From: Octopus vulgaris
Taxonomy: Eukaryota
Assembly (NCBI GenBank): GCA_951406725.2
Contig: OX597833.1
Location: 30,876,001 to 30,940,000, forward strand
Direction: 5' to 3'
DNA length: 64,000 nt
Position numbers and translations under genes: made by a program
In this document: positions 7,418 through 63,898 of the stretch, in pieces
Layout: every line of letters begins with the position of its first letter
Numbering within the stretch: the stretch's first letter is position 1
Notes under the pieces: generated by a model
Databases searched by the model: none
The model's input: the letters and a program-made list of their open reading frames with translations, nothing else
Told to the model about the DNA's origin: nothing

Positions 7418-8743
7418 CACACACACACACATAATAAGTGTGTATATACACACACACACACACACATACACATATATATGCATATATATATATATATCAT
7501 ATATATATCATATTATTTATCATCGTTGGGTAAACATATATCATTAAGATAGTTAGGGACAAGAAGAATAAAGATCAGATGATTGATACCATAGGAAATA
7601 GCTAATACTTTAGATATTGGTCAGATAGAGTTTCAAGACTATAGGCACAGGGACAAATTAGTGAAGTTTTATAGTAATACAGAGAAACAAAACATAATCA
7701 ATAACTTTCTATATCTCATTTTATATGAAATAAGTTAGTTAAATTTTTAAAAGATTGGTGTGAACAATGGATCAATAATTTTTGTTTATTAATAAGTTCC
7801 AGACATACACTTTAGATTTCTAGTGCCTCCATGCAACACAAAGTAAAACTTTATAAGGAAGTGTGGTATGTATAATCAACCACATAATAGAGTAATTAAT
7901 ATTTCTGTTAAGTGTCCAAATGAATTTTGCAAATGATGTATTATGTAATTTGTGTTTGTTATGTGATTATTCCTTCTGGATTTGAATTTTGACACTGCTG
8001 TACTAATATAATAGTATACTTTATCAGGTGTTTGAATGGAATAGTTATGTGCTAAGTTTGCTCTGAGATGCTAGTTATTAAATGGGCTCTTATATTGGTT
8101 GTTACACTTACATATACTTTTATGTTTATTAACTAGTATCTTATTAATTGTATTATTAGTAAAATTATTTTTAAGAGAAAACACTGAATCAGTAGTAATA
8201 TTTATGTCAGACCAAGATGTATTGTTAACAAAGGAGCTGAAGTCAGACCTACCACTTGAATAATTAGAATCAACAGTGGATCCATCATACATAAAATGGA
8301 TATCCATACAGTCTCCATTGCTCAAATTCCACACATTGTTTTTTCATGATTCTTGTAGGAATGCTGAAATGTTGCAATATCAAAGTTAACCCAGTGAACT
8401 TTTGACAAAAAGTACTTTTTAATACTTTTTTATATGTTAACCAGAAGAGGTAAAGCAATGCCTCTAGCCTTTCAGGCCTCTCCCAGATTTGTGAGATTGA
8501 TATGACTGAAATCTGTGGGTCAGTTTCAGCAAGAAACATTTTAGAGAAAGAAATATGTCTTCTTTTTTGCATCTTTCTCATTCTCGCATTTTGCTCATCC
8601 TCCTTCTTTCTGTCTCTCCACCATTTTCTTCCCTCATACTGTAAATAAAATTCTAGTCTCTTCTCATTATCAAACTCACACATATCTTGCAAATCCACTT
8701 TTTGATTAATTTTATTGTTATGTTATGTTGTGTTGCATTGCAG

Positions 8744-8818
8744 GGCATTGAACTGGTGTTGGAGTTGATTGACTATTATTCCTTAAGAGTGGTACAGGCC
8801 TATATGAAACACATTCAG
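8744..8818 (+). CDS. OPLAH: 5-oxoprolinase exon (GIELVLELIDYYSLRVVQAYMKHIQ)
   Basis: cag|...|gtaag boundaries; matches the OPLAH segment GIQLVGELIxxYGLxVVQAYMxHIQ; phase 0 join to the exon at 36727. Confidence 0.92.
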
Positions 8819-8964
8819 GTAAGAGTATTTTTTTTTATCTGTACTGTTTTCTGTTGACTTCTCAGTGTACAAAAAGTAGTCAGGACCATCTCCTTGTAAA
8901 CTTGTTATCTATCCCTATTACAGATTAACTTATGATTTTAAAAATTCTTGTGCATGTAACGTCA

Positions 8965-9410
8965 TCATTCTCCCTCATTATTTAATGTCTGTCATGCTTG
9001 CATGGATCAAGTGGAATTTTTGGAGGCAGAATTTCTATGGTAGAATTACCCCTCTTGTTGGCAACCCTCAACTGTTTCCAAGCAGAGTAATATTTCCCCA
9101 TGCCCAGACAAATTTTTCATGGAAGACTGGAAGCAAACAACTTCACTTGTATAACGAAGATGCTCATTTACAACCATCATGTGATGTCTAGACAAGGGCA
9201 TATACAAACACACACATACACACATGCATGCATACATACATGTATGTATGTATGTATACATGCAACAGACTTCCATTTACTTCTACGAAATCCAATCACT
9301 GGGCTTTGTTTAGCCCAGGGCTTCAGTAGAAGAGGCTTACTCAAGGTGCAACACAGTGGGACTGAGCTCAAGACCACTTAGTTTAGAAGCAAACTTCTTG
9401 ACCATACTTA
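8965..9410 (-). mobile_element. Degenerate tRNA-headed SINE with RTE-like tail
   Basis: Reverse-complement similarity to 48540-48975 and 35618-35872. Confidence 0.6.
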
Positions 9411-9602
9411 TGTGTGTGTGTGTGTGTGTGTTGATGTTTGTGTGCATCTGATATATTAAAAAGAACATTAAATGTGTAGTCCTTTGGAAGTTATGCTTTG
9501 AATATTGAATCAAACAATCTTGTTACTACAATGGAATTGATTCTCCTTGAGCATTTAATGTGCATTTGTGTATGTACAAATCACTCAGTTTCATATATAT
9601 AT

Positions 9603-10961
9603 CATCATCATCATCATCATCATCGTTTAACGTCCGTTTTCCGCGCTAGCACGGGTTGGACGGTTCGACCGGGGTCTGGGAAGCCAGGGGCCGCTCCAGG
9701 CTCCAGTCTGATTCTGGCAGAGTTTCTACGGCTGGATGCCCTTCCTAACGCCAACCACTCCGTGAGTGGATTGGGTGCTTTTTACGTGCCACCTGCACAG
9801 GGGCCGGGGGTCCGGCATCGGTCACGATCGGTTCGAGCTTTTAACGTGCCAGGGACACGGGGGCAACGGGATGCGGGGTAGAGTTGAGTTGGGGGGGGTC
9901 CAGCTGAGAAAGGTTTCACCAGTGAAAAGAGAGGGAGAGATAGTAAAGGGGTGCAGGTAATATAGGGGAGCACCAGTGGGGAAGGTTGGGGGAGGAGGAA
10001 CGATGGCAGGAAGGGTTGGTGAAGGTTCGTAAGAAATATAAACGTAGGATGTGTATATATATATATGGGTAGGTGTGGGGAAGGTTGGGTGGGTAAGGAG
10101 GAACGATGGCAGGAAGGGTTGGTGCAGGTTCGTAAGAAATAAAAACGTAGGATATTACGAGGCATGGAGGGGACTGGAAGGAGATAGTAGGATTGAGGCA
10201 GTGTCAGATTCAAAACAGGAGGAAGCGTAAGATCAGAGGGCGGTTGATGAGCTGAGACGCTAGCAGCTTGTCTTTTCTCAGTGAAAGCATATGAGGAGAA
10301 GGGGTAGGAAGGGGTGGTGGGGGAGGAGGAGGGAGTATCCGGTGTAGATGGTGAGAACAGTGTTCACCGGTATTGGTGGTATTGGCGGTGGGGGGGGGGT
10401 ATTGGTGGGGGGTGGGTATTGGTGGTGGGGGGGGGGTATTGGTGGGGGGGGTGGTGGTATTGGTGGTGGGGGTGGTATTGGTGGTGGGGGTGGTATTGGT
10501 GGTGGGGGTGGGAGGGCGGGCGCACCGCGCAATGGGAGAAGATGAGATTTTTAGGCGGCAGAAAGAAAGACAGGATTTGAGATGGAATGCTTTGCGATCG
10601 TGTGCATAAGTTTCTATGAGTGGAAGTTGGGAAAAGATGGGTTAGAGAATTTAGCGACAGAAAGAAAGACCAAATTTGAGACGAGATGTTTTTGCGAAGT
10701 TTTTGTGAATGAAAGTTTATATGCTTCAGCTAGCATTTGAGACGAAAGACAACGATAACGCCAATATATGGGGAAACAATAATAATAAGAAGGCTTGATG
10801 GTGATGATGATACTTGCAAAAACAATGAAAAGAAGGAACAGGACTTAGCTGATATTTTTCATCCTGCGTATTGGCTAAGCCTGTGGAAGCGAGTGAAGGC
10901 GAGATATATATACAGAGAGAGAGAGAGACAGTGATAACAGAGGGAGAAACCGACACCACAT

Positions 10962-11012
<51 letters not shown>

Positions 11013-11488
11013 GAGATAACAGAGGGACAAAACGACACCGCGCAATGGGAGAAGATGAGATTTTTAGGCGGCAGAAAGAAAGACAGGATTTGAGATGGAA
11101 TGCTTTGCGATCGTGTGCATAAGTTTCTATGAGTGGAAGTTGGGAAAAGATGGGTTAGAGAATTTAGCGACAGAAAGAAAGACCAAATTTGAGACGAGAT
11201 GTTTTTGCGAAGTTTTTGTGAATGAAAGTTTATATGCTTCAGCTAGCATTTGAGACGAAAGACAACGATAACGCCAATATATGGGGAAACAATAATAATA
11301 AGAAGGCTTGATGGTGATGATGATACTTGCAAAAACAATGAAAAGAAGGAACAGGACTTAGCTGATATTTTTCATCCTGCGTATTGGCTAAGCCTGTGGA
11401 AGCGAGTGAAGGCGAGATATATATACAGAGAGAGAGAGAGACAGTGATAACAGAGGGAGAAACCGACACCACATAGCGAGAGAGAGAG

Positions 11489-11535
<47 letters not shown>

Positions 11536-12011
11536 GTGATAACAGAGGGACAAAACGACACCGCGCAATGGGAGAAGATGAGATTTTTAGGCGGCAGAAA
11601 GAAAGACAGGATTTGAGATGGAATGCTTTGCGATCGTGTGCATAAGTTTCTATGAGTGGAAGTTGGGAAAAGATGGGTTAGAGAATTTAGCGACAGAAAG
11701 AAAGACCAAATTTGAGACGAGATGTTTTTGCGAAGTTTTTGTGAATGAAAGTTTATATGCTTCAGCTAGCATTTGAGACGAAAGACAACGATAACGCCAA
11801 TATATGGGGAAACAATAATAATAAGAAGGCTTGATGGTGATGATGATACTTGCAAAAACAATGAAAAGAAGGAACAGGACTTAGCTGATATTTTTCATCC
11901 TGCGTATTGGCTAAGCCTGTGGAAGCGAGTGAAGGCGAGATATATATACAGAGAGAGAGAGAGACAGTGATAACAGAGGGAGAAACCGACACCACATAGC
12001 GAGAGAGAGAG

Positions 12012-12052
<41 letters not shown>

Positions 12053-12514
12053 GTGATAACAGAGGGACAAAACGACACCGCGCAATGGGAGAAGATGAGA
12101 TTTTTAGGCGGCAGAAAGAAAGACAGGATTTGAGATGGAATGCTTTGCGATCGTGTGCATAAGTTTCTATGAGTGGAAGTTGGGAAAAGATGGGTTAGAG
12201 AATTTAGCGACAGAAAGAAAGACCAAATTTGAGACGAGATGTTTTTGCGAAGTTTTTGTGAATGAAAGTTTATATGCTTCAGCTAGCATTTGAGACGAAA
12301 GACAACGATAACGCCAATATATGGGGAAACAATAATAATAAGAAGGCTTGATGGTGATGATGATACTTGCAAAAACAATGAAAAGAAGGAACAGGACTTA
12401 GCTGATATTTTTCATCCTGCGTATTGGCTAAGCCTGTGGAAGCGAGTGAAGGCGAGATATATATACAGAGAGAGAGAGAGACAGTGATAACAGAGGGAGA
12501 AACCGACACCACAT

Positions 12515-12561
<47 letters not shown>

Positions 12562-13038
12562 GTGATAACAGAGGGACAAAACGACACCGCGCAATGGGAG
12601 AAGATGAGATTTTTAGGCGGCAGAAAGAAAGACAGGATTTGAGATGGAATGCTTTGCGATCGTGTGCATAAGTTTCTATGAGTGGAAGTTGGGAAAAGAT
12701 GGGTTAGAGAATTTAGCGACAGAAAGAAAGACCAAATTTGAGACGAGATGTTTTTGCGAAGTTTTTGTGAATGAAAGTTTATATGCTTCAGCTAGCATTT
12801 GAGACGAAAGACAACGATAACGCCAATATATGGGGAAACAATAATAATAAGAAGGCTTGATGGTGATGATGATACTTGCAAAAACAATGAAAAGAAGGAA
12901 CAGGACTTAGCTGATATTTTTCATCCTGCGTATTGGCTAAGCCTGTGGAAGCGAGTGAAGGCGAGATATATATACAGAGAGAGAGAGAGACAGTGATAAC
13001 AGAGGGAGAAAACCGACACCACATAGCGAGAGAGAGAG

Positions 13039-13081
<43 letters not shown>

Positions 13082-13553
13082 GTGATAACAGAGGGACAAA
13101 ACGACACCGCGCAATGGGAGAAGATGAGATTTTTAGGCGGCAGAAAGAAAGACAGGATTTGAGATGGAATGCTTTGCGATCGTGTGCATAAGTTTCTATG
13201 AGTGGAAGTTGGGAAAAGATGGGTTAGAGAATTTAGCGACAGAAAGAAAGACCAAATTTGAGACGAGATGTTTTTGCGAAGTTTTTGTGAATGAAAGTTT
13301 ATATGCTTCAGCTAGCATTTGAGACGAAAGACAACGATAACGCCAATATATGGGGAAACAATAATAATAAGAAGGCTTGATGGTGATGATGATACTTGCA
13401 AAAACAATGAAAAGAAGGAACAGGACTTAGCTGATATTTTTCATCCTGCGTATTGGCTAAGCCTGTGGAAGCGAGTGAAGGCGAGATATATATACAGAGA
13501 GAGAGAGAGACAGTGATAACAGAGGGAGAAACCGACACCACATAGCGAGAGAG

Positions 13554-13592
<39 letters not shown>

Positions 13593-14063
13593 GTGATAAC
13601 AGAGGGACAAAACGACACCGCGCAATGGGAGAAGATGAGATTTTTAGGCGGCAGAAAGAAAGACAGGATTTGAGATGGAATGCTTTGCGATCGTGTGCAT
13701 AAGTTTCTATGAGTGGAAGTTGGGAAAAGATGGGTTAGAGAATTTAGCGACAGAAAGAAAGACCAAATTTGAGACGAGATGTTTTTGCGAAGTTTTTGTG
13801 AATGAAAGTTTATATGCTTCAGCTAGCATTTGAGACGAAAGACAACGATAACGCCAATATATGGGGAAACAATAATAATAAGAAGGCTTGATGGTGATGA
13901 TGATACTTGCAAAAACAATGAAAAGAAGGAACAGGACTTAGCTGATATTTTTCATCCTGCGTATTGGCTAAGCCTGTGGAAGCGAGTGAAGGCGAGATAT
14001 ATATACAGAGAGAGAGAGAGACAGTGATAACAGAGGGAGAAAACCGACACCACATAGCGAGAG

Positions 14064-14098
<35 letters not shown>

Positions 14099-14574
14099 GT
14101 GATAACAGAGGGACAAAACGACACCGCGCAATGGGAGAAGATGAGATTTTTAGGCGGCAGAAAGAAAGACAGGATTTGAGATGGAATGCTTTGCGATCGT
14201 GTGCATAAGTTTCTATGAGTGGAAGTTGGGAAAAGATGGGTTAGAGAATTTAGCGACAGAAAGAAAGACCAAATTTGAGACGAGATGTTTTTGCGAAGTT
14301 TTTGTGAATGAAAGTTTATATGCTTCAGCTAGCATTTGAGACGAAAGACAACGATAACGCCAATATATGGGGAAACAATAATAATAAGAAGGCTTGATGG
14401 TGATGATGATACTTGCAAAAACAATGAAAAGAAGGAACAGGACTTAGCTGATATTTTTCATCCTGCGTATTGGCTAAGCCTGTGGAAGCGAGTGAAGGCG
14501 AGATATATATACAGAGAGAGAGAGAGACAGTGATAACAGAGGGAGAAACCGACACCACATAGCGAGAGAGAGAG

Positions 14575-14615
<41 letters not shown>

Positions 14616-15080
14616 ATAGTGATAACAGAGGGACAAAACGACACCGCGCAATGGGAGAAGATGAGATTTTTAGGCGGCAGAAAGAAAGACAGGATTTGAG
14701 ATGGAATGCTTTGCGATCGTGTGCATAAGTTTCTATGAGTGGAAGTTGGGAAAAGATGGGTTAGAGAATTTAGCGACAGAAAGAAAGACCAAATTTGAGA
14801 CGAGATGTTTTTGCGAAGTTTTTGTGAATGAAAGTTTATATGCTTCAGCTAGCATTTGAGACGAAAGACAACGATAACGCCAATATATGGGGAAACAATA
14901 ATAATAAGAAGGCTTGATGGTGATGATGATACTTGCAAAAACAATGAAAAGAAGGAACAGGACTTAGCTGATATTTTTCATCCTGCGTATTGGCTAAGCC
15001 TGTGGAAGCGAGTGAAGGCGAGATATATATACAGAGAGAGAGAGAGACAGTGATAACAGAGGGAGAAACCGACACCACAT

Positions 15081-15125
<45 letters not shown>

Positions 15126-15587
15126 GTGATAACAGAGGGACAAAACGACACCGCGCAATGGGAGAAGATGAGATTTTTAGGCGGCAGAAAGAAAGACAGG
15201 ATTTGAGATGGAATGCTTTGCGATCGTGTGCATAAGTTTCTATGAGTGGAAGTTGGGAAAAGATGGGTTAGAGAATTTAGCGACAGAAAGAAAGACCAAA
15301 TTTGAGACGAGATGTTTTTGCGAAGTTTTTGTGAATGAAAGTTTATATGCTTCAGCTAGCATTTGAGACGAAAGACAACGATAACGCCAATATATGGGGA
15401 AACAATAATAATAAGAAGGCTTGATGGTGATGATGATACTTGCAAAAACAATGAAAAGAAGGAACAGGACTTAGCTGATATTTTTCATCCTGCGTATTGG
15501 CTAAGCCTGTGGAAGCGAGTGAAGGCGAGATATATATACAGAGAGAGAGAGAGACAGTGATAACAGAGGGAGAAACCGACACCACAT

Positions 15588-15634
<47 letters not shown>

Positions 15635-16110
15635 GTGATAACAGAGGGACAAAACGACACCGCGCAATGGGAGAAGATGAGATTTTTAGGCGGCAGAAAG
15701 AAAGACAGGATTTGAGATGGAATGCTTTGCGATCGTGTGCATAAGTTTCTATGAGTGGAAGTTGGGAAAAGATGGGTTAGAGAATTTAGCGACAGAAAGA
15801 AAGACCAAATTTGAGACGAGATGTTTTTGCGAAGTTTTTGTGAATGAAAGTTTATATGCTTCAGCTAGCATTTGAGACGAAAGACAACGATAACGCCAAT
15901 ATATGGGGAAACAATAATAATAAGAAGGCTTGATGGTGATGATGATACTTGCAAAAACAATGAAAAGAAGGAACAGGACTTAGCTGATATTTTTCATCCT
16001 GCGTATTGGCTAAGCCTGTGGAAGCGAGTGAAGGCGAGATATATATACAGAGAGAGAGAGAGACAGTGATAACAGAGGGAGAAACCGACACCACATAGCG
16101 AGAGAGAGAG

Positions 16111-16147
<37 letters not shown>

Positions 16148-16610
16148 GTGATAACAGAGGGACAAAACGACACCGCGCAATGGGAGAAGATGAGATTTTT
16201 AGGCGGCAGAAAGAAAGACAGGATTTGAGATGGAATGCTTTGCGATCGTGTGCATAAGTTTCTATGAGTGGAAGTTGGGAAAAGATGGGTTAGAGAATTT
16301 AGCGACAGAAAGAAAGACCAAATTTGAGACGAGATGTTTTTGCGAAGTTTTTGTGAATGAAAGTTTATATGCTTCAGCTAGCATTTGAGACGAAAGACAA
16401 CGATAACGCCAATATATGGGGAAACAATAATAATAAGAAGGCTTGATGGTGATGATGATACTTGCAAAAACAATGAAAAGAAGGAACAGGACTTAGCTGA
16501 TATTTTTCATCCTGCGTATTGGCTAAGCCTGTGGAAGCGAGTGAAGGCGAGATATATATACAGAGAGAGAGAGAGACAGTGATAACAGAGGGAGAAAACC
16601 GACACCACAT

Positions 16611-16667
<57 letters not shown>

Positions 16668-17538
16668 GTGATAACAGAGGGAGAAACCGACACCACATAG
16701 CGAGAGAGAGAGAGCGAGAGAGAGAGAGAGAGAGAGAGAGACATAGTGATAACAGAGGGACAAAACGACACCGCGCAATGGGAGAAGATGAGATTTTTAG
16801 GCGGCAGAAAGAAAGACAGGATTTGAGATGGAATGCTTTGCGATCGTGTGCATAAGTTTCTATGAGTGGAAGTTGGGAAAAGATGGGTTAGAGAATTTAG
16901 CGACAGAAAGAAAGACCAAATTTGAGACGAGATGTTTTTGCGAAGTTTTTGTGAATGAAAGTTTATATGCTTCAGCTAGCATTTGAGACGAAAGACAACG
17001 ATAACGCCAATATATGGGGAAACAATAATAATAAGAAGGCTTGATGGTGATGATGATACTTGCAAAAACAATGAAAAGAAGGAACAGGACTTAGCTGATA
17101 TTTTTCATCCTGCGTATTGGCTAAGCCTGTGGAAGCGAGTGAAGGCGAGATATATATACAGAGAGAGAGAGAGACAGTGATAACAGAGGGAGAAACCGAC
17201 ACCACATAGCGAGAGAGAGAGAGCGAGAGAGAGAGAGAGAGACATAGTGATAACAGAGGGACAAAACGACACCGCGCAATGGGAGAAGATGAGATTTTTA
17301 GGCGGCAGAAAGAAAGACAGGATTTGAGATGGAATGCTTTGCGATCGTGTGCATAAGTTTCTATGAGTGGAAGTTGGGAAAAGATGGGTTAGAGAATTTA
17401 GCGACAGAAAGAAAGACCAAATTTGAGACGAGATGTTTTTGCGAAGTTTTTGTGAATGAAAGTTTATATGCTTCAGCTAGCATTTGAGACGAAAGACAAC
17501 GATAACGCCAATATATGGGGAAACAATAATAATAAGAA
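9603..17538 (-). mobile_element. Non-autonomous RTE derivative: 3' UTR fused to 5' UTR plus tandem monomer array, no ORF
   Basis: (CAT)n tail and 3' end (9603-9860) match 34730-34947. Segment 9879-10535 matches the 5' UTR at 30752-31222. Both ends lie in (TA)n. Confidence 0.75.
10524..17538. repeat. Tandem array of ~510 bp units, 13 full copies plus one partial
   Basis: An identical 65 aa ORF recurs at 10737, 11250 and so on to 16983, spaced 506-523 bp, with one 598 bp unit carrying an internal duplication. Variation is almost entirely in (GA)n length. Confidence 0.97.
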
Positions 17539-20757: not shown

Positions 20758-21984
20758 CTAGCAGAATTGCCCGGCGTTGCTCGGGGCTGAATTGCTTGAA
20801 AGTACTGTTAATGATTGCACTGAATTATGATGATTCTTCAGGCAAATATTGATATAAGCTTACGGTGAGAGATAAGGACTTAACGATCAAACGTGTGCCA
20901 TTGCATTGTTTTGGGGGAACCAAATTTCTAATGAGCATCATAGGGGCACCAACTTTAAGTTTGAGAAAGTGTGGTGGTAGTCCGGGGTGCTCAAAGGAAT
21001 TGAGTACCTCTATTGGATAGTTGATGACGTCCTCTGGATCAGGAGTTGTATCGATAGACTGATATACATAGACTTCCCCAGGAATGAGTTTTAGCATTTC
21101 ATCATTAATATGGTGAACAGTTTTATTCCTCGGGGCCAGTATAGCCTTTTTGCCAATCCAATCCATATTCTGATAATTAGCTTGTAGATCTGGGAACACT
21201 GCATCTCTGAGATCAGAAGGCGTCTTAACAATGGTACAAATGGAATCGATGGCAATATTACCATTTTCATCCCCTGGTATTTTGCCTTCGCCAAGTGCAA
21301 GGAGGGTGTGAGGAAATGCTGCTGATGTGATATTACGTCGCATATGAGCACGCATATTGGTGTGAAGTTTGAGAGTTACTTCCGTTTATTTTTTAAAATA
21401 TGCATTAAAATGGAAAAAAATGATGGTAAATTATTTGTAAAATCATAGACTCATCGTAGACGCGCGCTAATACCCAGAAGGGCTCGATATGAATGACGAC
21501 TATAAGATACCCGGTTTTGGTTAAACTGCATCGCAAAATGTGGGAGTAGTTAGGAATCTAAATCGGAGTAGACAGACACACAACCTTTCTTTTATATATA
21601 AATATTTTCGTCCTAAAAAACTTTGTATAGAGTGAATGGTTACCTCTATGGAAATATATACACACACGTTATACATACATGTGTGCATAGATGAATATAT
21701 AAATACATTTATATATCTATATACACTTTTGGGCGATCTCTGTGCTACTTAGAGATAACTTTAGATCTTATTTTCGTCCTAAAAGACTTTGTGCGGAGTG
21801 AATGGTTATGTGTATGGAAATATATACACACACATTATACATACATCTGTGTATAGATGAATATATAAATACATTTAAATATCTATATACACTTTTGGGC
21901 GATTTTTCTGCTACTTGGATATAGGTCTTATATTCGTCCTAAAAATCTTTCCTGTCACACACTCACGCACACACACACACGCAC

Positions 21985-25345: not shown

Positions 25346-25381
25346 ATTTTGCAGTGTTTTCAGACCTAGTTAAATCTAAAA

Positions 25382-25592
25382 CTACAAGCCACACCAACTT
25401 GAGCTTTAGCACATTTATACTAAGTAAGGAGGTAAATAAATCCTGCAATTTTGGGATATGACACCATTTCAATAAAATTTTAATAGACTATTAAAATTTT
25501 ATTGAAATGGTGTCATATCCCAAAATTGCAGGATTTATTTACCTCCTTACTTAGTATAAATATGCTAAAGCACAAGTTGGTGTGGCTTGTAG
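25382..25592. repeat. Palindrome, 105 bp arms, 1 nt loop at 25487
   Basis: ctacaagccacacc...taatag-a-ctatta...ggtgtggcttgtag. Confidence 0.95.
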
Positions 25593-27935
25593 CTATAAAT
25601 GGCAAAATTTCATATCAAGATGTCACTTAAGTTGGATTTTCTATTTAGATAAAGATTATTATTTTTTTTTTTGCATTAGTCTTGGAAATGAAAAAATTTT
25701 GGAAAATTTACAATTCCTCCCTCTCTCCCTTTCTCTCTCTATCTCTTTATTTATTTTCCAGACCAATTTTCAACAGTTTTGTTTGCACCACACACTTAAA
25801 AATGATGGGAGAAACCTTTTCGAAAAAAAAAAAAGAAAAGAAAAAAATTTGGAAATATTTTAAAATATAGAGATGTGTAATTTAAGGGAGATTTAACTAT
25901 TGTTTCTATCTCATCCCAAAACCATCTGATACCTTCCTTAGAATTGCATGTAGACCTAGATTACAAAACAAACGAAATGTGAAAATTAATACCTTGTTTT
26001 AAGCATTAAAAATGTAAAATAAAGGCTTTAACATCTGTAAATCTGTAACTTACAGCAAACTTGTTAGCTAGGGAGAAGAGAGAAAAAAAACTCAAAATTA
26101 ATATGTAAACACTAACTGTATTCAAAATCAGAAAAAAAAATCACATCTGGCTTTGTGCAATGAATATAATCTTTACTGGTGGAATTTGACCAATATTTCT
26201 TGAAGAAAAACTAAATTTGTATGTACAAGAATATCCGCTAGATTTACCTAATAGCCCTCCATATGTTAAAATAGCAAGAGAGAAAAAAACAACATTCTCA
26301 GTTTAATACATTTTTTGTAAAAATTTATGTTTACTTAGTAATTAGTTTGCCCATTTCTTGAAAACCTGGCTCAATTGCAATACTTGAAGTCTTGGATTTG
26401 TGTTCTGTTAGACCTCTTGCCACACACAAATACATTAGTTTGGCAAGTAGGATCAATATACCACCCTCTTTAGTGACTTTGTGCTTCTTCGCCATATCAC
26501 AACCAGAAATATCAACAACCATATAGAATTCGTGAGAAATTTTTTTTCATCTTGAAGAAAATACGTCCTTTTTTAAGTGAAAATTAACAATGAAATTTTA
26601 ACTTTTATATTTCGTAACAATTATCTGACCTAAACCATCAATTTTTTTGTCAAAATAAAGCAAAACGCTTCTTCTTCATGACAGTATGATTTTAACACAA
26701 CTTGAGTTATGGTACTCAAGTGCATTAAACTAGAATGTGGGCTACTCTTCAGCAGTTACAAAAAAATGGGACAAACTTTGTAAATGCATGGAAATACCAG
26801 AGTGTTTGAGGGACCCTGACATGATATGTAACTGAAGGATTTTAATTAAAACTATATAAGAAGAAGGTTCACATCCATAACTTTCAAATGATATATAATT
26901 TTCCTTGGAAAATGAAAATGAAGCAAAAAGTGTAATTTTTTCAGGGTCAAACTCCATTGTACAGTGTTCTGTAGTGGTACCTACTATTAATACTTTTGAC
27001 TCAATCTGATGTGTGTGTGTGCTTGCAATTAGAGTTTAGCCTCAAGTCAACTCTTAAAGACCTATGATCAAGCACATTACAACCATGACCATCCAAGTAT
27101 TATTTACCGTGTCTTTTCCATGTCTAAAGCAGTGGAAGTGTTTAACGGAGAATTAACTGGCTCCTATATGTAGCATATCAAGCAACTATATAGAGACATC
27201 TTCATTACTTATACACACACACACACACACATATCATTCAACTACAGTAGTAGTTGAATAATATTCTTAAGGCTGCAATTTACTCACATGCAGCATCTTT
27301 CAGAGCTTTTCGTTAATTCAGTTCTTAACCAAATTGAAAACTGTTAACATTTTTGAAGATGACTAGTCCCTAGCTACATTTTGGCATAAAATAAATTGAG
27401 ATTTGATCCAGTAGAAAAAAGTTTACATCAAAATTTGTAGCAATGTTATAGGAGAGTAAGTAATACCACCAATCAAGTTTAGATCTAAATAACTTTTTTT
27501 ATTTTTAAAGTAAAATATATTTATCTTAGCTTCAATGATTCATAGTTTTGGTTCCATGCAACAAAACTTTGTATCAGAAAAGTTGTATCATAAAAAAAGA
27601 TATAAGTAAGACAAAAAATTGGATTTAAGTATAACTAAAAAAACAAACTATATTTTAATTAAGCTTAAATAATAGAGCTCAATTCAAGGAATTTCATGGT
27701 ATCGATCTCATATAATGAAGTTTTAAAAGAAAAACGTTATGAGTGTTTTTTTCTGAAATCTGAGGGTGATAATATACTTCTATACTTTTTTATGAATATA
27801 GTTCTATAAGAAGACTTTTAATATATGTCATTGGCATGATTGAGGTAAGGAAAAAATTATAAATGACACTGCTAATTGGTACATTTGACACATTATTAAT
27901 TAGCGTAATAGCATAGCCTGGGAAAAACATGGGTG

Positions 27936-29252: not shown

Positions 29253-29803
29253 ATTAAAATAAGCAACAGGATATCAAGAGGTGATGCAGTATGACTGATT
29301 CAATAAATAAATAGAATGTTTTAATCAGTTAGACACATTAATATAATTTTACTCAAATTCTCTAATAGAGCAAGAAGAGGGAGAAAGTCCATGTTGCTAC
29401 TAATGTGACTTAGAATATATTACACTTCTAAGAACTGTATGAAGTTTGTTAGGGCCATAGCTTGTAAAGGATTGTGGTTCACTTTTATTAGCATCTTGCC
29501 CCTTTAAAGGGGCACAATCATTTACAAGCTATGACCCTTACAAACTTCATACAGTTCTTAGAGGTGTAGTATATTCTGAGTCACATTAATAGTAACATGG
29601 ACTTTCTCCCTCTTCTTGCTCTATTAGAGAATTTGAGTAAAATTATATTAATATGTCTAACTGATTAAAACATTCTATTTATTGATGCAACTGAGGATAG
29701 CCCTGTATTTAAACTGATGTAATGATTGCATTTTTCAATTAAATGGAGCCGCTTGAAACGGTCATACTGCAACACCTCTTAATATCCTGTTGCTTATTTT
29801 AAT
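29253..29803. repeat. Inverted repeat (29253-29476 versus 29513-29803)
   Basis: tagagcaagaagagggagaaagtccatg versus catggactttctccctcttcttgctcta. The right arm has an extra CTGAGGA...GAAACGGTC segment. Confidence 0.9.
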
Positions 29804-29960
29804 ATATACATATATAAATATATATATAAATTTAAATTTAACAATTAAGGATAACCTCTTAATAAGGAATCTTAACAAGAAATTATCAGGTAGATAGCGT
29901 GAAAAACCTCATAAGAGAAAAATTTCGAAAATAATTCTTTCTTATTGAACATATTAATTT

Positions 29961-32900
29961 CTGATGTTCACAGCAAGTCAATATTTTTTTCTCTCCCTAT
30001 CTTCCGTATCTCGCACAACTTACATACATTTGCCGCTAATCGTTTTTAAATGTTTGAACTTATACACTAACGAGCTTGCCTTCCCTATCTTATTCTTTCT
30101 CTACGAAATTTAATCCCTTAAGATACCCTCTATCTTTCTCTACGAAGTTTAATTCGATCTTCGCCACACTTTCCCTATCTTTATCTTTCTCTACGAAGTT
30201 TAATTCGATCTTCGCCACGCTTTCCCTATCTTTATCTTTCTCTACGAAGTTTAATTCGATCTTCGCCACACTTTCCCTATCTTTATCTTTCTCTACGAAG
30301 TTTAATCCGATCTTCGCCATTCGCGGTATCTTCTTCTTCTTCAAAAACGAAATCGCCATTACCATTCCCAAATTCAAACTTCCTTCTTCCCCAAATCAGA
30401 GACTTCCGGTCAATCCATCTAAAGGCACCTGGTCCCTCCCACCCCTATCATTCTTCCTGATCACTGATGTTCACAGCAAGTCAATATTTTTTTCTCTCCC
30501 TATCTCGCACAACTTACATACATTTGCCGCTAATCATTTTTAAATGTTTGAACTTATACACTAACGAGCTTGCCTTCCCTATCTTATTCTTTCTCTACGA
30601 AATTTAATCCCTTAAGGTACCCTCTATCTTTCTCTACGAAGTTTAATTCGATCTTCGCCATGCTTTCCCTATCTTTATCTTTCTCTACGAAGTTTAATTC
30701 GATCTTCGCCACGCTTTCCCTATCTTTCTCTACGAAGTTTAATCCGATCTTCGCCATTCGCGGTACTCCCGCCCTTTCCCACCCCCACCACCAATACCGG
30801 TGAACACTGTTCACACCATCTACACCGGATATTCCCTCCTCCCTCCTCCCCCACCACCATCACGTGTCTCTCCCTCCTACCCCTCCTCCTCACATGCTTT
30901 CACTGTGTACTACACCTCCCCCCACCAAGACAAGCAGCTAGCGCCATAGCTCATCAACCGCCCCACTGATCTTACGTTCCTCCTGTTTTGAATCTGTCAC
31001 CGCCTCAACCGGCTATCTCCTTCCAGTCCCCCCCCTCGTGATATCCTACGTTTTTATCTCTTACGAACCTGTTCCAACCCCTCCCTGTCATCATTCCTCC
31101 TTACCCCAACCTTCCCCGCTGGTGCTTCCCTATATTACCTGCACCCCCCCCACTTTCTCTCCCTCTCTTCTCACTGGTGGAACCTTTCTCAGCTGGACCC
31201 CCCCCCCCCCAACTCAACTCTAGAATATCTGTGTTTTTCCTCCTTCCTACACTGCCTAATTACGTTACTCAGTGACGATAACGCTTGCTTAGAATGCTAA
31301 TTTCAATAATTTCAGCCTTTCTGCCACATCTACATCATCAATGACCTTAACGCTTATGCCTACAACACTGCTAACACCAGCTCCTGCCCACGGCAGGTCC
31401 ACAATCTTAACATGCCTACAATGCTTGAATGTTGTCAGGTCGGAAGAGAGATCAGAAGAAAAATGCCACGGAAACCATCACCACCACAACAACCCTCTTC
31501 TTCTCAGGCACTGAATTGCCCCCCTCCCCCCCACATCTCCTTCCCAGTTTTCAGAGTTGGCACTATCAATATTGGTACATTGAAAGGCAGGTCTAGTGAG
31601 ATTGTAGAGATGCTTGAGAGAAGACAGGTTGATGTATGCTGCATACAAGAGGTAAGACGGAGAGGTGCTTCAGCTAGGGTCCTCACAGGCAAGGCACTTA
31701 AGTACAAACTCTTCTGGCAAGGTAACATGGAAGGTGTAGGGGGTGTAGGCATTCTCCTTGCGGAGAAATGGGTTGTCAGGGTTTGCGATAGAGTACTCAA
31801 GCTCAGGTTGGTCCTACAGAGTGGTACAGCTACGATTATCTCCGCCTATGCCCCACAAGCGGGACTACCAAATGATTTGTGGGTGGAGATTTTAATGGGC
31901 ATGTTGGGCGGGAATCGGGTATCTTCACTGGGGTACACGGTGGCCATGGTATTGGCACCAGAAATGATGAGGGAACTAGACTGCTGGAATTCTGTGATGC
32001 ATGTAACCTTTCAATCTGCAACACTAACTTCAAGAAGCCTGACTGCCACCTTATAACCTATCAGTCAGGAGACTCCGCTAGCCAAATAGACTTCATCCTC
32101 ACCAGACAGCGGGATGCAGGGTCACTCTTGAATACAAAGACCCTCCCGGGTGAAGAATGTATCCCTCAGCATAGACTAATCATCAGTGACTTTAAGCTTG
32201 AGGCCAGAAGGACTCCAAGAAACAAACCAATCCAGAAAAGAAGGATTTGGAGGCTAAAGAACCCTTCACATGGTCAGAAATTTAGGGACATACTCATCAA
32301 GAAATTTGATGAGAGGGAGGAGGAGCTCCAGACGTCAGACATAGAAGGTAGCTGGGAATTCCTACAGGACAGCTTGCTGAGTGCCACAGACCGAGTCTGT
32401 GGATGGTGCAAAGTCCCTTCCAGACCTAGAGTTACATGGTGGTGGAATAGTGCAGTAGATAAAGCCATTAGTGCAAAGAGACGGGCCTGGAAAGCCTGGA
32501 GGGATGGGGGCAGCAGGGAACTGTACCAGGCAGCCAAAAGGGAGGCTGGGCGGCAGGTATACATAGCCAAAGATGTAGCAGAAAAGAAGAAGTTTGCCAA
32601 TGTCCAGCGACGTGAGGACCAAAGAGCTGAGGTATTTCGGATTGCCAGACAGTGTGTCAGAGAAAATAGTGATGTTACAGGAGAGAAATGTGTCCGCGTG
32701 GATGATGGGGCACTTGCTTTTACTGTTAGTGAAAAGAAAGAGGCTTGGAGAAGCCATTACGAAAGACTGCTGAACGAGGAGAATGAATGGGAGGAGGAGA
32801 GCCTGCCAAATGTTGACCCAGTAGAGGGACCAGCTACCCGAATAGACAGCTCCCTTGTAGATAAGGCAATTAAGGATATGAAACCAGGCAAAGCCCCCGG

Positions 32901-34947
32901 CCCATCAGGAATCACTGCTGAGATGCTTAAAACAGCTGCCTATGTGGGCTATGGCATAGTCACCCGCATTGTAAACCAGGTAGTTCACAATGGAGTCATA
33001 CCCAATGACTGGCGTAGCAGCACCATAGTCAACTGCTACAAGGGTAAGGGTGATGCTCTAGATAGAAATAATTACAGGGGTATCAAACTGTTGGACCAGG
33101 TGATGAAGGTCACAGAGAGGGTCATAACCCATCTCATTAGGGAGAGAATTTGCTTAGATGAAATGCAGTTCGGTTTTGTGCCAGGTAGAAGCACCACTGA
33201 TGCTATATTCCTGGTCCGACAACTGCAGAAGTACCTAGCTAAAGATAAACCCCTCTACATAGCCTTTGTGGACTTGGAGAAAGCCTTTGACAGTGTTCCC
33301 CGTTCCCTTATCTGGTGGTCGATGCGGAAACTGGAGATTGACGAATGGCTAATAAGGGCTGTACAGGCTCTATACAGAGAGGCTGCCAGCAAGGTTAGGA
33401 TTGGCAACGAATATAGTGAAGAATTCCGGGTAGAAGTAGGTGTGCACCAGGGCTCAGCCCTCAGTCCCCTTCTATTCATCATAGTCCTCCAGGCAATAAC
33501 AGAGGAATTCAAAACAGGATGCCCCTGGGAGCTCCTCTATGCTGATGACCTGGCTCTCATAGCAGAATCACTACCGGAACTAGAAAAGAAATTTCGGGTG
33601 TGTAAGCAAGGGTTAGAATCAAAGGGCCTTAGAGTAAATGTAGCAAAGACCAAAGTAATAGTAAGCAGCAAGGCGTACTCAGCACACACCCCCTCGGGTA
33701 GGTGGCCCTGCTCAATCTGTAGGAAAGGTGCAGGTAGAAACTCCATAAGATGCACCCAATGTAAGCTATGGACGCACAAGAGGTGCAGCAACATTAAAGG
33801 GAAATTAACAGATAAGATAGCTTTCATGTGCGGCAGATGCACAGGGACAATAGACACCACAGACACTCAGAAAACAGATTCCATCACACTCCAGGGAGAG
33901 AAACTAGAAGTAGTTGATAGTTTCCGCTACCTGGGTGACCAAGTTAGTAGCGGAGGTGGATGCACAGAGAGTATCACCACTAGAATACGAATAGCCTGGG
34001 CAAAGTTCAGAAAGCTCCTACCCCTACTGGCGAAAAAGGGTCTCTCCCTCAGAGCGAAAGGTAGACTATGATGCATGTGTGCGAACTGCCATGCTTCACG
34101 GTAATGAAACATGGGCTATAACTGCAGAGGACATGCGTAGACTTGAAAGAAATGAAGCTAGCATGATCCGCTGGATGTGTAATGTCAGTGTGCACGCACG
34201 ACAGAGTGTAAGCATCCTGAGAGAAATGCTGGATATAAGAAGCATCAGATGTGGTGTGCAAGAGCAACGCTTGCGATGGTATGGTCATGTGCTGCGGATG
34301 GATGAGGAGAGATGTGTGAAGAAGTGCCACTCCCAAACAGTTGAAGGTATCAGGGGGAGAGGTAGACCCAGGAAGACATGGGATGAGGCAGTCAAGCATG
34401 ACCTCAGAGCATTGGGCCTCACTGAGGCAATGGCGAAGGACCGAGATCTCTGGAGATATGCTGTGACTGCAAAGACCCGGGCTGCTTCCTGCATCAGTTC
34501 CGCATAGCCCCTGCCCATTCAAAGTACCCCGGATCCCAGATTGTCCCGCTGTGCTTGAGGAGACCTGTTGAGTCAAGTACATGAACACTCCGAACACCCC
34601 TCCCCACTGGTGCTCCCCTATATTTCTGCACCCTCCCCCCCACATAAAAAGCACCATCCGAACGTGGCCGATGCCAGCACCGCCCCGACTGGCTTCTGTG
34701 CAGGTGGCACATAAAAAGCACCAACCGACCGTGGCCGATGCCAGACCCCTCTGGCACCTGTGCAGGTGGCACGTAAAAAGCACCCACTACACTCGCGGAG
34801 TGGTTGGTGTTAGGAAGGGCATCCAGCTGTAGAAACACTACCAGACCAGACTGGAGCCTGGGGCAGCCCCTGGCTCCCCAGACCCCGGTCGAAACCATCC
34901 AACCCGTGCTAGCGCGGAAAACGGACGTTAAACGATGATGATGATGA
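29961..34947 (+). mobile_element. Near full-length RTE LINE (APE endonuclease plus RT), disabled
   Basis: GTINIGTL, CIQEVR, SAYAPQ, GGDFNGHVG, QIDFIL, YADD, LRWYGHV. Deletion with frameshift near 31875, frameshift near 34068, (GAT)n tail, tandem monomers at 29961-30765. Confidence 0.95.
31412..34507 (+). pseudogene. Disrupted RTE polyprotein ORF
   Basis: ORF pieces 31412-, 31879-34071 and 34079-34507 lie in different frames. Confidence 0.9.
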
Positions 34948-35065
34948 GGGCATTATTATACATACATGCCTCACGCTAAGAGGGACATCAGTCATTTCTA
35001 CCAAAAAATTTTACTAATCATACCGAATGCAACTTTTCAAAGCAAGACATTTAAAAAATGAATTT

Positions 35066-35129
35066 AGTCTTGTATCACCTGTGATTTCGTACTTACCGCA
35101 GAATTGCGACCATACTCATCAGCAAGACT
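35066..35129 (-). ncRNA. Type I hammerhead ribozyme, apparently intact
   Basis: Reverse complement reads agtcttg-CTGATGA-gtat ggt cgca attc tgcg gtaa gtac-GAAA-tcac ag gtga-TA-caagact. Stem I 7 bp, G-C base of stem II, AUA cleavage triplet. Confidence 0.85.
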
Positions 35130-35527
35130 GATTCTGAATATATCATAAATAAACGACCTGTACCGTCGAAGTCGAACAGCCATCTGCTCTCTTCCAACGA
35201 AGCACATGGAGAAGTTTACATATTATACATCCGGTAAATGGCGGGCTTCTTCGAATTGCATTTCGGGTAGGAAAATTTTTTTGGGAATAAATTTAAATTT
35301 AACAATTAAGGATAACCTCTTAATAAGGAATCTTAACAAGAAATTATCAGGTAGATAGCGTGAAAAACCTCGTAAGAGAAAAATTTCGAAAATAGTTCTT
35401 TCTTATTGAACATATTAATTTATATATAGAGGGCATTATTATACATACATGCCTCACGCTAAGAGGGACATCAGTCATTTCTACCATATATATATATATA
35501 TATATATAAAATAATATGTTACATTAC

Positions 35528-36726: not shown

Positions 36727-36873
36727 AAAAATGCTGAAATTGCTGTCAGTGATATGCTTCATTCTATTGCCAAAGAGACAAGAAAACGTACTGGAAGCAC
36801 TCAGCTGTTTGCTGAGGACTTTATGGATGATGGGTCATGTATTCGACTGCGAGTTAATATAAATGAGAGCAAG
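36727..36873 (+). CDS. OPLAH: 5-oxoprolinase exon (KNAEIAVSDML...EDFMDDGSCIRLRVNINESK)
   Basis: ttacag|...|gtttgt boundaries; NAExAV and MDDGS motifs. Confidence 0.95.
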
Positions 36874-42730: not shown

Positions 42731-42989
42731 TTGCAGCGTGGAAGGTGTTTGTAAGCCATTTAAGAAACACACAAAAACCGTTACATTCACTTTAACATTT
42801 AAATTTAATTTGCCAAAATATTTTCGTCGCTTTCAGACCGCGACCTGTTCACTGACAAAAATATCGTGCTAACAGGTCGCGGTCTCAAAGCGACGAAAAT
42901 ATTTTCACAAATTAAATTTAAATGTTGAAGTGAATCTAACGGTTTTTGTGTGTTTCTTAAATGGCTTATAAACACCTTCAACGCTGCAA
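42731..42989. repeat. Inverted pair of pLTR-like repeats (42731-42849 versus 42871-42989)
   Basis: ttgcagcg.gaaggtgttt versus aaacaccttc.acgctgcaa; same family as 7190-7385. Confidence 0.9.
42809..42859 (-). ncRNA. Second G3:C8 hammerhead-like motif
   Basis: Reverse complement reads tttgtca-GTGAACA-g-gtcgc ggtctgaaa gcgac-GAAA-atat-TT-tggcaaa. Confidence 0.6.
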
Positions 42990-45199: not shown

Positions 45200-46905
45200 T
45201 AACACCTCGTTGTAAACAATGTTTCTTGTTTTTCCTTGTGGAGCATATACAAAAAGGTTTCTTTTGGTTCCTACTCTTGAGCAGCAAACATACAGTTGCC
45301 TATGCGAGAAGCAGGGCTCTTTCAAGAGAAGACCAGCTACAGAGTGGGTTTGACCCTGAGATTTGTTAATGGACATGGCAAAGCTGATACGAAGGGGGAT
45401 TGCAGTCTTCTGAATGTAAATGAAATTTCTGCTCCTGATGGAGTAAGAGGAAATCTTGGAATGAAGACGTCATCACCTTTTCCACATCCAGAAAGAATGA
45501 TCGCCTCGATAACGTGTGATATCATTTTCTTTATCACCAGTCGTGTTCCATTGCAAAGTCTTGGTGGTCCCAGATTGCGGAGTAGCATTACAGGAGTTCC
45601 AACTTTAAGTGGTAATATGTGTGGAGGTAGTCCAGGAGGCTCCAGTGAATTGAGAAATTCAGGAGGATAGTTCACAACTTCATTTATATCTGGAATTGTA
45701 TCAACAGACTTGTAAGTGTGTATAGTGCCGGGAAGAGAATGCATTAGCTGTTGATTACTTTTGTTAACAGCGACGTTTTTTGGAGCTAATATTGCTCTTT
45801 CACACAGCCAATTGTGATTTTGGTAGTTTTATGTGAAGTTGGGAAAGACTTTGTTTTTGAGGTCATCTACAGAATTAACAACAGAGGAAAATGACCACAC
45901 TTCCATTTGTCCTGCAGCATCAAGAGGCATCTTGCCTTCACCAAGTGTCAAAAGGTCCTGTGCAAACTTTGTGGACATTTTGTCGCCGTGTAGCTGAGCT
46001 CTCATGTTAGTGGTGAGACTAAAGATTGTAACATGATGCCACAGGGTAGAGGACTTTAGGCATGCTTGAACTTCATCAGCTCTAGTGCCTTTCGGAATGA
46101 CAGGAAGCATTTGCCTGAAATCACCTGACAACAGAAGCGTTACACCTACCATTGGAGCCTGACAGTCTCGGATGTCTTTCAGGGCTCTATCTAATGCTTC
46201 CAAAGCTCCCTTGTGAGCCATAGTGCACTCATCCCAGACAATTAGATGACACATTTTAAGTACTTGTCCCTGATCTGAGCTTTTGTTGATGTTGCATGAA
46301 GGCATTTCGGATGCTGCTAAATTGAGAGGGAGTTTAAAAGTTGAGTGTGCTGTCCTGCCACCAGGTAACAAAGTAGCTGCAATGCCAGTGGAGGCTACAG
46401 CTACTGCAATGTCCTGATGCTACCTAACTTCTGCAAGGAGAAGCTTTGTAATAAATGTTTTTCCTGTCCCTCCAGGAGCATCGAGGAAGAAGATTCGTCC
46501 CTCGCGTTGGCGTACACTGTTAAGAATAGTTCTGTAGGCCTGCAGCTGGTCCGGAAGTAATTTAGGCTCATTTTCAACAATGTACTTTGAAAGCGCTTGA
46601 GTGTCGTAGGTTGTTTCACGAATGACAACAGTGGGAAGGCTATTTGACCCTGACCTGAATGCTTGTGGCAGGCCATACGTCGACAATTCATTTCCACCCA
46701 GTTTAGCAATTCTGTCTTCAACGTCAATGAGTGTTTTGTTATAGATTTCATTGCTGATACCCTCCATGTCAGGATAGAGTAGTTGAGCTTGGCGCTGAAA
46801 CGGACAATGTTTTTGAGATTCCGGTTCGAATGTAAGGCAGGTTTGAAAGTGTTCCCAACAGTTATTAGTTGTAGTGATAGAGTGTTTATGCCGAATATGT
46901 ACGTA
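45200..46905 (-). pseudogene. Helitron RepHel PIF1 helicase domain, disrupted
   Basis: FFLDAPGGTGKTF (Walker A), [33 protein letters not shown]; several frameshifts. Confidence 0.92.
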
Positions 46906-46944
46906 TGCATGTATATATATGTATGTATGCCTGTATATATGTAC

Positions 46945-47078
46945 AAAATCCACTGAGAAGGCTTTTGTTGGTCTGAAGCTACAGCAGAAGACACATGCCA
47001 AGTTACCACACAGTGGGACTGAACCCAGGACCATGTGTTTGCAACGTAGTTTGTTACCACACAGCCACACCTGCCCCT
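46945..47078 (-). mobile_element. tRNA-headed SINE fragment
   Basis: cagtgggactgaacccaggaccatgtg...ttaccacacagccac. Confidence 0.7.
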
Positions 47079-47656
47079 ATGTGTGTGTGTGTGTATGCGT
47101 ATGTGTGTATGGGTAGATATATTATGCATGTATATATGTGTACATATTACATGTACATCTATATATATACATCTACACCTAAAATACAAAATACAAAGTT
47201 ATATCTTGATATCGCTAGTGATAACAATACTCAAAATATATAACAGACTGGAATTGTAGGCCCGTCTCTTGCAATTTTGATCAATTTTTATATTTTAGAA
47301 TTGTATTAAAAAGGAACATGGGAACAGGCAGAGAAAATCTGCCTTTTATCATAAGAGATAGGAGCACTGAGTATATAGTTCTGTTTTCTAACATATGACC
47401 TTACTCAGTCATCAGTACTTCTGTTTCTATTACAAGCTTATCTGATTTCAAGAAGTGATTTTTGCCAATGCATAATAATGCTAATTTTCTCATTAGTTTG
47501 TCAGTTTCTGCTTCTCAAGATGTCTGCTTATCTATATGTCTTTCTATCTTTACCTAAATAGATGGCTTGCCTGCTCATCAGTGTGATAAGCTATCATTAA
47601 CTCATGTTATTTTAAAACCCATATGATATTTTACAAATTGTTTAATACCATTACAG

Positions 47657-50186: not shown

Positions 50187-50356
50187 TCCAGACAGTGCAT
50201 CTATGACAACATCACCCAATACATTCTACTCCATTTAAAATGGTGTGGTTGAGGGACATTTGGCTACTTACTTAAGTAGCCAAATGTCCCTCAACCACAC
50301 CATTTTAAATGGAGTAGAATGTATTGGGTGATGTTGTCATAGATGCACTGTCTGGA
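50187..50356. repeat. Near-perfect palindrome, 84 bp arms, 2 nt loop
   Basis: tccagacagtgcat...gctactta-ct-taagtagc...atgcactgtctgga. Confidence 0.95.
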
Positions 50357-61655: not shown

Positions 61656-61745
61656 TGAATTCCTCAATTACAATTCAAATCTAAAATGTTGGGACTATCA
61701 TGATAAACAGAAACTAACTAGAAATGTTGTATATACTGAAGTTGT

Positions 61746-63400: not shown

Positions 63401-63898
63401 CCAATGTTAGATTAGGTAGGGAGTCAGCTAAAACTGGCTGCGTTTGTCAAGGAAGAGGGGGATTGCAGGTATGATGGTGGGTACCACCAGCTGGAGAGGG
63501 TTCAGACAGAGAGAGAAGAAACAAGCTCATCCCTACATACACACAAGAGCACTCACACACAGGAACAAGCACACATGGACAGCCGAATAGCTTTCTCCAT
63601 CACTTGATAAGGCCAAAGAAAATTCCTGGGTAGTTGATGGCATGTTTCTAGTTGGAACAAAAACAAAATGAAAGATAGCCATCAAGTGATGGAGAAAGCT
63701 ATTCGGCTGTCCATGTGTGCTTGTTCCTGTGTGTGAGTGCTCTTGTGTGTATGTAGGGATGAGCTTGTTTCTTCTCTCTCTGTCTGAACCCTCTCCTGCC
63801 GTTGGTACCCACCATCATACCAGCAATCCCCCTCTTCCTTGACAAACGCAGCCAGTTTTAGCTGACTCCCTACCTAATCTAACATTGGAATATCCATA
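63391..63898. repeat. Inverted repeat, ~218 bp arms, 72 bp spacer
   Basis: tatggatattccaatg...catcacttgat versus atcaagtgatg...cattggaatatccata. Confidence 0.95.

Follow-up and report, generated by a model that had tools for sequence, protein, structure and literature searches.

A 7-kb tandem array heads an ORF-less RTE-type element in an intron of Octopus vulgaris: monomers that may act as repeated promoters

The array and its carrier element

The window analyzed here, a stretch of 64,000 nucleotides of Octopus vulgaris (assembly GCA_951406725.2, contig OX597833.1, positions 30,876,001 to 30,940,000 of the forward strand), carries two retroelements that lie together in a single intron (8819-36726, about 27.9 kb) of a likely plus-strand gene. 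One is a 7.9 kb bipartite non-autonomous element, antisense to the gene and composed of 13.5 tandem monomers, a 5′ untranslated region (UTR) and an RTE-type 3′ end, and the other is a long interspersed nuclear element (LINE) of the RTE type in the sense orientation. A sequence-only reading of this DNA had described about 13.5 near-identical minus-strand units of ~510 bp joined to an RTE-type 5′ UTR and had taken them for a probable LINE 5′ monomer array. The units and their junction were borne out by the features of the array-bearing element, which are as follows.

9602..9860, minus strand: RTE-type 3′ end carrying a (GAT)n tail; aligned with 34700-34946, it is identical at 220 of 243 bases
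9879..10522, minus strand: 5′ UTR, a 'tether'-like segment of 644 bases; 376 of 407 aligned bases (92%) identical to the LINE at 30766-31223
10523..17269, minus strand: 13 complete head monomers of 501-598 bp, each terminating in CCCATTGCGCGGTG
16171..16768, minus strand: unit 12 (598 bp), which has a recombinant third sub-repeat (sequence comparison of units)
17270..17538, minus strand: 5′-most partial monomer of 269 bp, with a (CA)n(TA)n tract adjoining the 5′ end of the element

A motif search of the window placed 14 minus-strand copies of CCCATTGCGCGGTG between 10523 and 17270, where chance would give 0, and the array start, formerly given as 10524, was corrected to 10523. The array totals 7016 bp, i.e. 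13.5 units made up of 13 full units (501-598 bp; nominal repeat unit ~513 bp) and the 269 bp 5′-partial unit. The full units measure 513, 523, 517, 509, 520, 511, 506, 520, 507, 509, 513, 598 and 501 bp, and each is laid out as two sub-repeats with a (CT)n tract after each. All 13 full units share a 425 bp core without a single difference over 5525 bases. A single substitution was present in unit 1, a 1-base insertion in unit 8, and a TTT/TTTT variant in units 5, 7 and 12, and the long (CT)n tract varied in length between units and was interrupted by G in 9 of 14 tracts. From comparison of the units, the extra sub-repeat of unit 12 is a sign of unequal exchange or of a template slip within the array. 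Within the 64-kb window, the monomer was found nowhere but in this array, which Tandem Repeats Finder missed solely because its period limit was 500. Open frames of 150-170 codons over some units depended on microsatellite length and were dismissed as chance. In each unit there is also a run of pyrimidines that closes with CAG (10897-10881 in unit 1), and splicing of the 5′ UTR is possible there.

The carrier of the array has no open reading frame (ORF). Its segment 9879-10522 matches the LINE at 30766-31223 and its segment 9602-9860 matches 34700-34946, with nothing between, an internal deletion fusing the 5′ UTR to the 3′ end; when gaps were included, BLAST identity of the shared UTR and 3′ end was 79-88%. 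The carrier 5′ UTR contains an expansion of a C-rich 18-mer at 10375-10511 and a 79 bp duplication (9976-10050 / 10075-10153), and the (GAT)n tail lies at 9602-9625. The 3′ end terminates in an (AT)n tract, and because both ends of the carrier lie within such tracts, a target-site duplication would be indistinguishable from the tract. No Rfam family reached the gathering score in the window, the six hits in 9550-11600 being at chance level (E 0.63-5.1), and the carrier is therefore not a SINE (short interspersed nuclear element) with a tRNA, 5S or 7SL head. No monomer sequence was found in the window 3′ of the carrier, and insertion of the element into a pre-existing array was rejected on this ground. 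Judged by sequence, the carrier is built in the manner of bipartite non-autonomous RTE elements, with a head of 7 kb in this case. The array had thus been placed rightly at the 5′ end of an RTE-type element, but its carrier is an ORF-less derivative of 5′ UTR and 3′ end and not a LINE.

The partner LINE

The near-complete LINE (29961-34946, plus strand) comprises the following parts, and its empty site lies downstream of it.

29961..30328, plus strand: 5′-partial head monomer of 368 bp containing sub-repeats of 51 bp; 93.5% alike with the unit that follows
30329..30765, plus strand: complete head monomer of 437 bp that terminates in CGCCATTCGCGGTA; its body does not align with the array unit
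30766..31223, plus strand: 5′ UTR segment common to the array-bearing element (alignment)
31310..34507, plus strand: single endonuclease, reverse transcriptase and PHD-like finger frame with two frameshifts (Pfam, homologues)
34508..34946, plus strand: 3′ UTR with (GAT)n tail at 34933-34946
35287..35486, plus strand: empty site, an uninterrupted second copy of both LINE flanks (sequence comparison)

Its head amounts to 1.8 units (one of 437 bp and the 368 bp partial unit; the monomer had been put at ~500 bp), with the two occurrences of CGCCATTCGCGGTA at 30315 and 30752. Pfam detected Exo_endo_phos (below the curated cut-off), RVT_1 and PHD, and homologues of 1040-1100 amino acids with ~50% identity, which bore no clade names, aligned over 31532-34465 in three frame segments. 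There was no ORF of at least 150 codons between the last monomer and 31310, i.e. no separate ORF1. The LINE was labeled RTE type from this architecture, a single endonuclease-reverse transcriptase frame without separate ORF1 and with a microsatellite-like 3′ end; such a 3′ end is given as an RTE feature in the covered part of PMC6007223. Membership of the L1 clade was ruled out by the one frame and (GAT)n tail as against ORF1, ORF2 and poly(A).

The LINE flanks recur uninterrupted at 35287-35486, which indicates that a single insertion event brought in the monomers together with UTR, ORF and tail, so that the monomers arrived with the LINE. This insertion replaced 8 bases of the empty site and left no target-site duplication. 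The LINE sits in the first of two direct repeats of ~200 bp (29826-29960, 34946-35486) that enclose 283 bp and end in (AT)n, and that possibly constitute a small terminal-repeat element.

Two further observations were made on this LINE. A segment of its 3′ UTR (34595-34638), just before the shared 3′ end, is a 45 bp copy of its 5′ UTR (31107-31151) and is 90% identical to the version of the array-bearing element and 84% to the LINE's own; a template switch may have given the LINE a tail of bipartite-family origin, or else the common UTR may be foreign to this ORF. A branch-point and acceptor-like motif lies at 31297-31315 on the plus strand, just before the frame, and might permit splicing of the 5′ UTR.

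Two head types at one junction

In the UTR alignment, the array head and the LINE head join the UTR at the same nucleotide, as the sequence-only reading had proposed, and both elements begin at their 5′ end with a partial unit. The monomer bodies do not align with each other: the local score was 29 against a shuffle mean of 29.9, and 175 of 300 shuffles scored as well, so that homology over the whole body, already considered largely wanting in that reading, was rejected. When alignments were anchored at the unit ends, the last 20-120 bases of the two unit types outscored every, or almost every, other pair drawn from these units (null fraction 0-0.0007). The common UTR base and the kept unit ends suggest that an ancestral 5′ end was retained and that different upstream sequence was added to it. 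No third head was obtained from the four other RTE-type fragments in the window, which are 5′-truncated or cut by an inverted repeat.

Composition and folding of the monomers

Both unit types are 67-68% pyrimidine on the sense strand, with a GC content of 40-41%. Neither is CpG-depleted, the observed/expected CpG ratios being 0.96 and 1.46 versus 0.34 in the LINE ORF and a background median of 0.33. No known RNA or ribozyme family was found in the monomers with Rfam, and their folding z-scores of -0.49 and +0.97 were no better than those of shuffles. An array of ribozymes or small-RNA genes (retrozymes, or 5′ HDV-like ribozymes of RTE elements) was accordingly rejected, with only chance-level hits and no unusual fold; lack of an RNA family together with an ordinary fold argues against either kind of array, and leaves room for a ribozyme of an undescribed type.

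Abundance in public sequence runs

Four (X1, X2, X4 and X5) of 24 listed runs were compared as assembled contigs over 8600-10960 at 88% likeness. X4 carries another species label, and the run type of X5 was guessed as RNA; cover of the element in X5 could stem from DNA or from host-gene intronic RNA and was not used for expression. The gauge was the depth of single exact-match contigs relative to a single-copy flank contig, and it is a rough one.

In X2, the flank had a depth of 14.3, an exact 152-base monomer contig 5574, and body contigs 990 (across the deletion junction) and 1674. In X4, the depths were 6.56 for the flank, 462-560 for the monomer, 70-83 for the body and 311 for a monomer variant with 10 differences, and in X5, 113-131 for the monomer and 23-33 for the body. 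The monomer thus stood at ~390 times the flank in X2 and 70-85 times in X4, a difference of about five-fold. Ratios of monomer to body were 3.3-5.6 (X2), 5.6-7.9 (X4) and 3.4-5.6 (X5), X1 being excluded from these exact ratios for want of a long exact monomer contig among those listed; with summed bins, the ratios were 3.9 (X1), 2.5 (X2), 3.6 (X4) and 4.4 (X5), i.e. 2.5-4.4 in all four runs.

The X2 contig across the carrier deletion junction is an exact match spanning 9823-9957, and a variant of the junction (9842 to 9879) was present in three of the four runs. A loose end at 10523 in X2 (two contigs) proved to be a variant monomer-monomer junction, and a one-base deletion at 10548, found in 0 of 14 units of this array, was common in X1, X2 and X5. 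The deleted element is therefore a homogeneous multi-copy family, its monomer is several times as abundant as its body, and other tandem copies exist. If all monomers are linked to bodies, there are about 3-8 units per exact body copy. The element is likely to be a young dispersed family whose copies each bear several monomers, this locus being one of the long tail; a lone satellite and an assembly artefact are the less likely readings. As to the earlier proposal of exchangeable and amplifiable 5′ monomers, two non-homologous heads at one UTR nucleotide and a unit amplified relative to the body speak for it, but the unit is of high copy number family-wide and local expansion is at most part of the matter.

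Exact-pattern scans gave no match to the UTR or the monomer in metagenome contigs, and none to the UTR in prokaryote genomes. The bins 9469-9626 were nearly uncovered in X1, X2 and X4, which reflects repeat skipping and filtering and proves nothing. The RTE-type 3′ end at 9627-9863 reached extreme abundance in each of the four runs, with summed depths as high as 2e7 in X1 for a flank of 50, and because of this depth it is regarded as common to very large SINE or LINE families.

Interpretation of the heads and rival explanations

The monomers are best explained as likely repeated internal promoters, swapped and expanded by the lineage as in rodent L1, an explanation we favor with some reserve since they resemble the rodent L1 monomers in where they lie, in being tandem, in having a partial first unit and in having been replaced. 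Under this model, an ancestral 5′ end, of which the last 20-50 bases were kept in both heads, would have gained different upstream sequence (5′ switching), and tandem duplication of each head would have followed, the CGCGGTR motif serving as a constant 3′ boundary. An internal deletion would then have given an ORF-less family, mobilized in trans by the RTE protein through its intact 3′ end. RNA polymerase II would start inside an upstream monomer, and the new copy would have a partial first unit and keep whole promoters downstream. Unequal exchange or slippage would reset the unit number, and this locus would be a long-tail member that arrived long or grew after insertion.

Several points weigh against this explanation. 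High CpG ratios are not peculiar to the monomers, since the 3′ end of the element stands at 0.98 and a ratio of 0.96 is attained in 8 of 116 background windows. The similarity test anchored at the junction was selected once the junction had been seen, only two head-bearing elements were seen, and a clean target-site duplication was present at neither. Contig depth is not copy number, and the positional depths in X1, from 3,075 to 368,672, were unusable for exact ratios. The monomer-UTR junction (10522/10523) and the 3′ insertion junction were bridged by none of the 32 contigs listed of 112,245, and a separate satellite would likewise account for a monomer more abundant than the body.

Such a satellite, or other independent tandem repeat, might have become fused to a bipartite element through template switching or an insertion at the edge of an array, with the monomers as passengers or as a read-through promoter. 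The several-fold excess of monomer depth over body depth, the unrelated monomer bodies of the two elements, and the fact that linkage of monomer to UTR is readable at two loci only all suit this alternative. It is nevertheless considered unlikely, in that insertion into an array would leave monomer sequence 3′ of the element, where there is none, that two unrelated repeats would have to share the same UTR base and a common terminal motif, and that the ratio of monomer to body stays within 3-8 in three samples. Less likely again is a family with only 1-3 monomers in which the 13.5-unit array is a locus-specific expansion after insertion, i.e. an incipient satellite. Recent turnover inside the array is evident from the core identity in all 13 units and the recombinant unit 12, and 7.9 kb is long for an RTE-type insertion, the curated consensus of mollusc RTE-BovB averaging 3583 bp in the covered part of PMC10294476. 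However, 3-8 units per exact body copy genome-wide imply that multi-unit heads or other arrays are common, and exact unit identity holds genome-wide in other samples, so that homogeneity is no pointer to local growth; for the last few units, local expansion is compatible with the promoter model.

That the array length is an artefact of assembly or polishing of a short head is very improbable. Polishing with reads from hundreds of identical copies could produce a core free of differences, but the unit lengths show no repeated block, variants common to several units lie scattered, as with the TTTT of three units and the G that interrupts 9 of 14 long (CT)n tracts, and tandem junctions were present in another sample.

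On a broader and tentative reading, the two elements would belong to a young, still-moving cephalopod RTE lineage with independently evolved promoter arrays of the L1 style and a fixed swap point, CCATT(G)CGCGGTR, and the gene-less derivative would be a 'retrotransposing satellite' that delivers several kb of ~513 bp units to introns, where arrays can grow. Rodent L1 is the main known case of tandem promoter monomers whose heads are replaced. If so, an L1-like design in another LINE clade and another phylum would indicate a general solution to promoter loss and host silencing, a second system would be at hand for testing how monomer number is restored, and reverse transcription would have a direct route for spreading tandem arrays. 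Repeat libraries that strip tandem repeats would then truncate such families, and a likely promoter would be identified for octopus work on active RTE elements.

Comparison with known systems

None of the ingredients of this arrangement is new in itself. Monomers occur in rodent L1, and head switching in L1 and in SolRTE; RTE elements have bipartite derivatives; TRE5-A combines a promoter module with a non-autonomous variant; and satellites can derive from the UTRs of transposons. The following comparisons draw on the covered parts of the cited texts. In mouse and rat L1 (A, Tf and Gf, with a tether), tandem units are likewise joined through a non-repeated tether, the 5′-most unit is partial, and CpG-rich, non-homologous heads have been replaced over time, with few copies exceeding 10 units (PMC9022269, PMC5381506); young mouse subfamilies average 3-4 monomers, with 7 of 5765 loci above 10 (PMC9022269), which is the kind of distribution proposed here, and rat units are ~650 bp (PMC5381506). 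The octopus elements differ in having one endonuclease-reverse transcriptase frame, a microsatellite tail, an invertebrate host and a GC content of only ~41%; the long array here is on an ORF-less derivative, and the promoter role is predicted.

The A modules of the Dictyostelium TRE5-A elements are tandemly repeated. In TRE5-A.1 and TRE5-A.2, the 5′ A module shows activity as an RNA polymerase II promoter and an ORF2-less variant is mobilized in trans (PMC5633606), whereas those elements have two ORFs and target tRNA genes, and no head replacement was found in the covered part of that source. Bipartite non-autonomous RTE LINEs (Bov-A, RTESINE1/2, WALLSI3, MAR4_MD) similarly consist of a 5′ UTR fused to a 3′ end, without ORF and with a microsatellite tail (Kojima 2018, PMC5786205), and are presumed to rely on RNA polymerase II for transcription and to be mobilized in trans (PMC5786205); they are short, and 'tandem' is absent from the main text of that paper, while here a 7 kb head precedes a 0.9 kb body. 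In SolRTE of Nicotiana, non-homologous distal 5′ UTRs are found on a shared RTE-clade body, with variability rising distally, but the host is a plant and 'tandem', 'monomer' and 'satellite' are absent from the main text (bioRxiv 10.1101/2022.11.04.512097).

Octopus RTE-2_OV, likened here by description alone, has a single endonuclease-reverse transcriptase-zinc-finger ORF of ~1100 amino acids, a microsatellite 3′ end and UTRs of ~600 nucleotides, but no monomers are reported and 'tandem' does not occur in the main text (PMC9115989). Satellites from transposon UTRs are described in PMC9659126, in the covered part of which 'RTE' does not occur. Full-text literature searches, with the covered parts of two octopus papers (PMC13282606, PMC9115989) among the texts, yielded no case of tandem 5′ monomers in RTE-type elements or in cephalopods; outside their reach lay Repbase, Dfam, journals on subscription and supplementary repeat libraries, any of which may already hold these heads.

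Genomic setting and other elements in the window

The gene hosting both elements is likely to be that of 5-oxoprolinase. Its scattered exons extend over 8744-58723 on the plus strand, with very large transposon-filled introns, and the exon upstream of the intron with both elements is as follows.

8744..8818, plus strand: likely 5-oxoprolinase exon, with no Pfam hit itself; based on an in-frame join to the exon starting at 36727 and on resemblance

Hydantoinase_B was hit in 5 of the 106 frames scanned with Pfam, out of 235 candidate plus-strand frames. The setting of the array is interspersed and genic, not a heterochromatic block.

Long self-inverted repeats, 89-99% alike, lie at 1-1293, 25374-25600, 29303-29686, 42731-42989, 50187-50356 and 63391-63898, and are probably foldback or miniature inverted-repeat elements; one of them cuts the 5′ end of another RTE-type copy at ~63390. 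Open frames at 20825-21385 and 45337-47198 on the minus strand resemble fragments of Helitron/PIF1 helicases. A further internally deleted RTE-type copy, in which the start of the endonuclease is joined to the last part of the ORF, is located at 61745-63372 on the minus strand.

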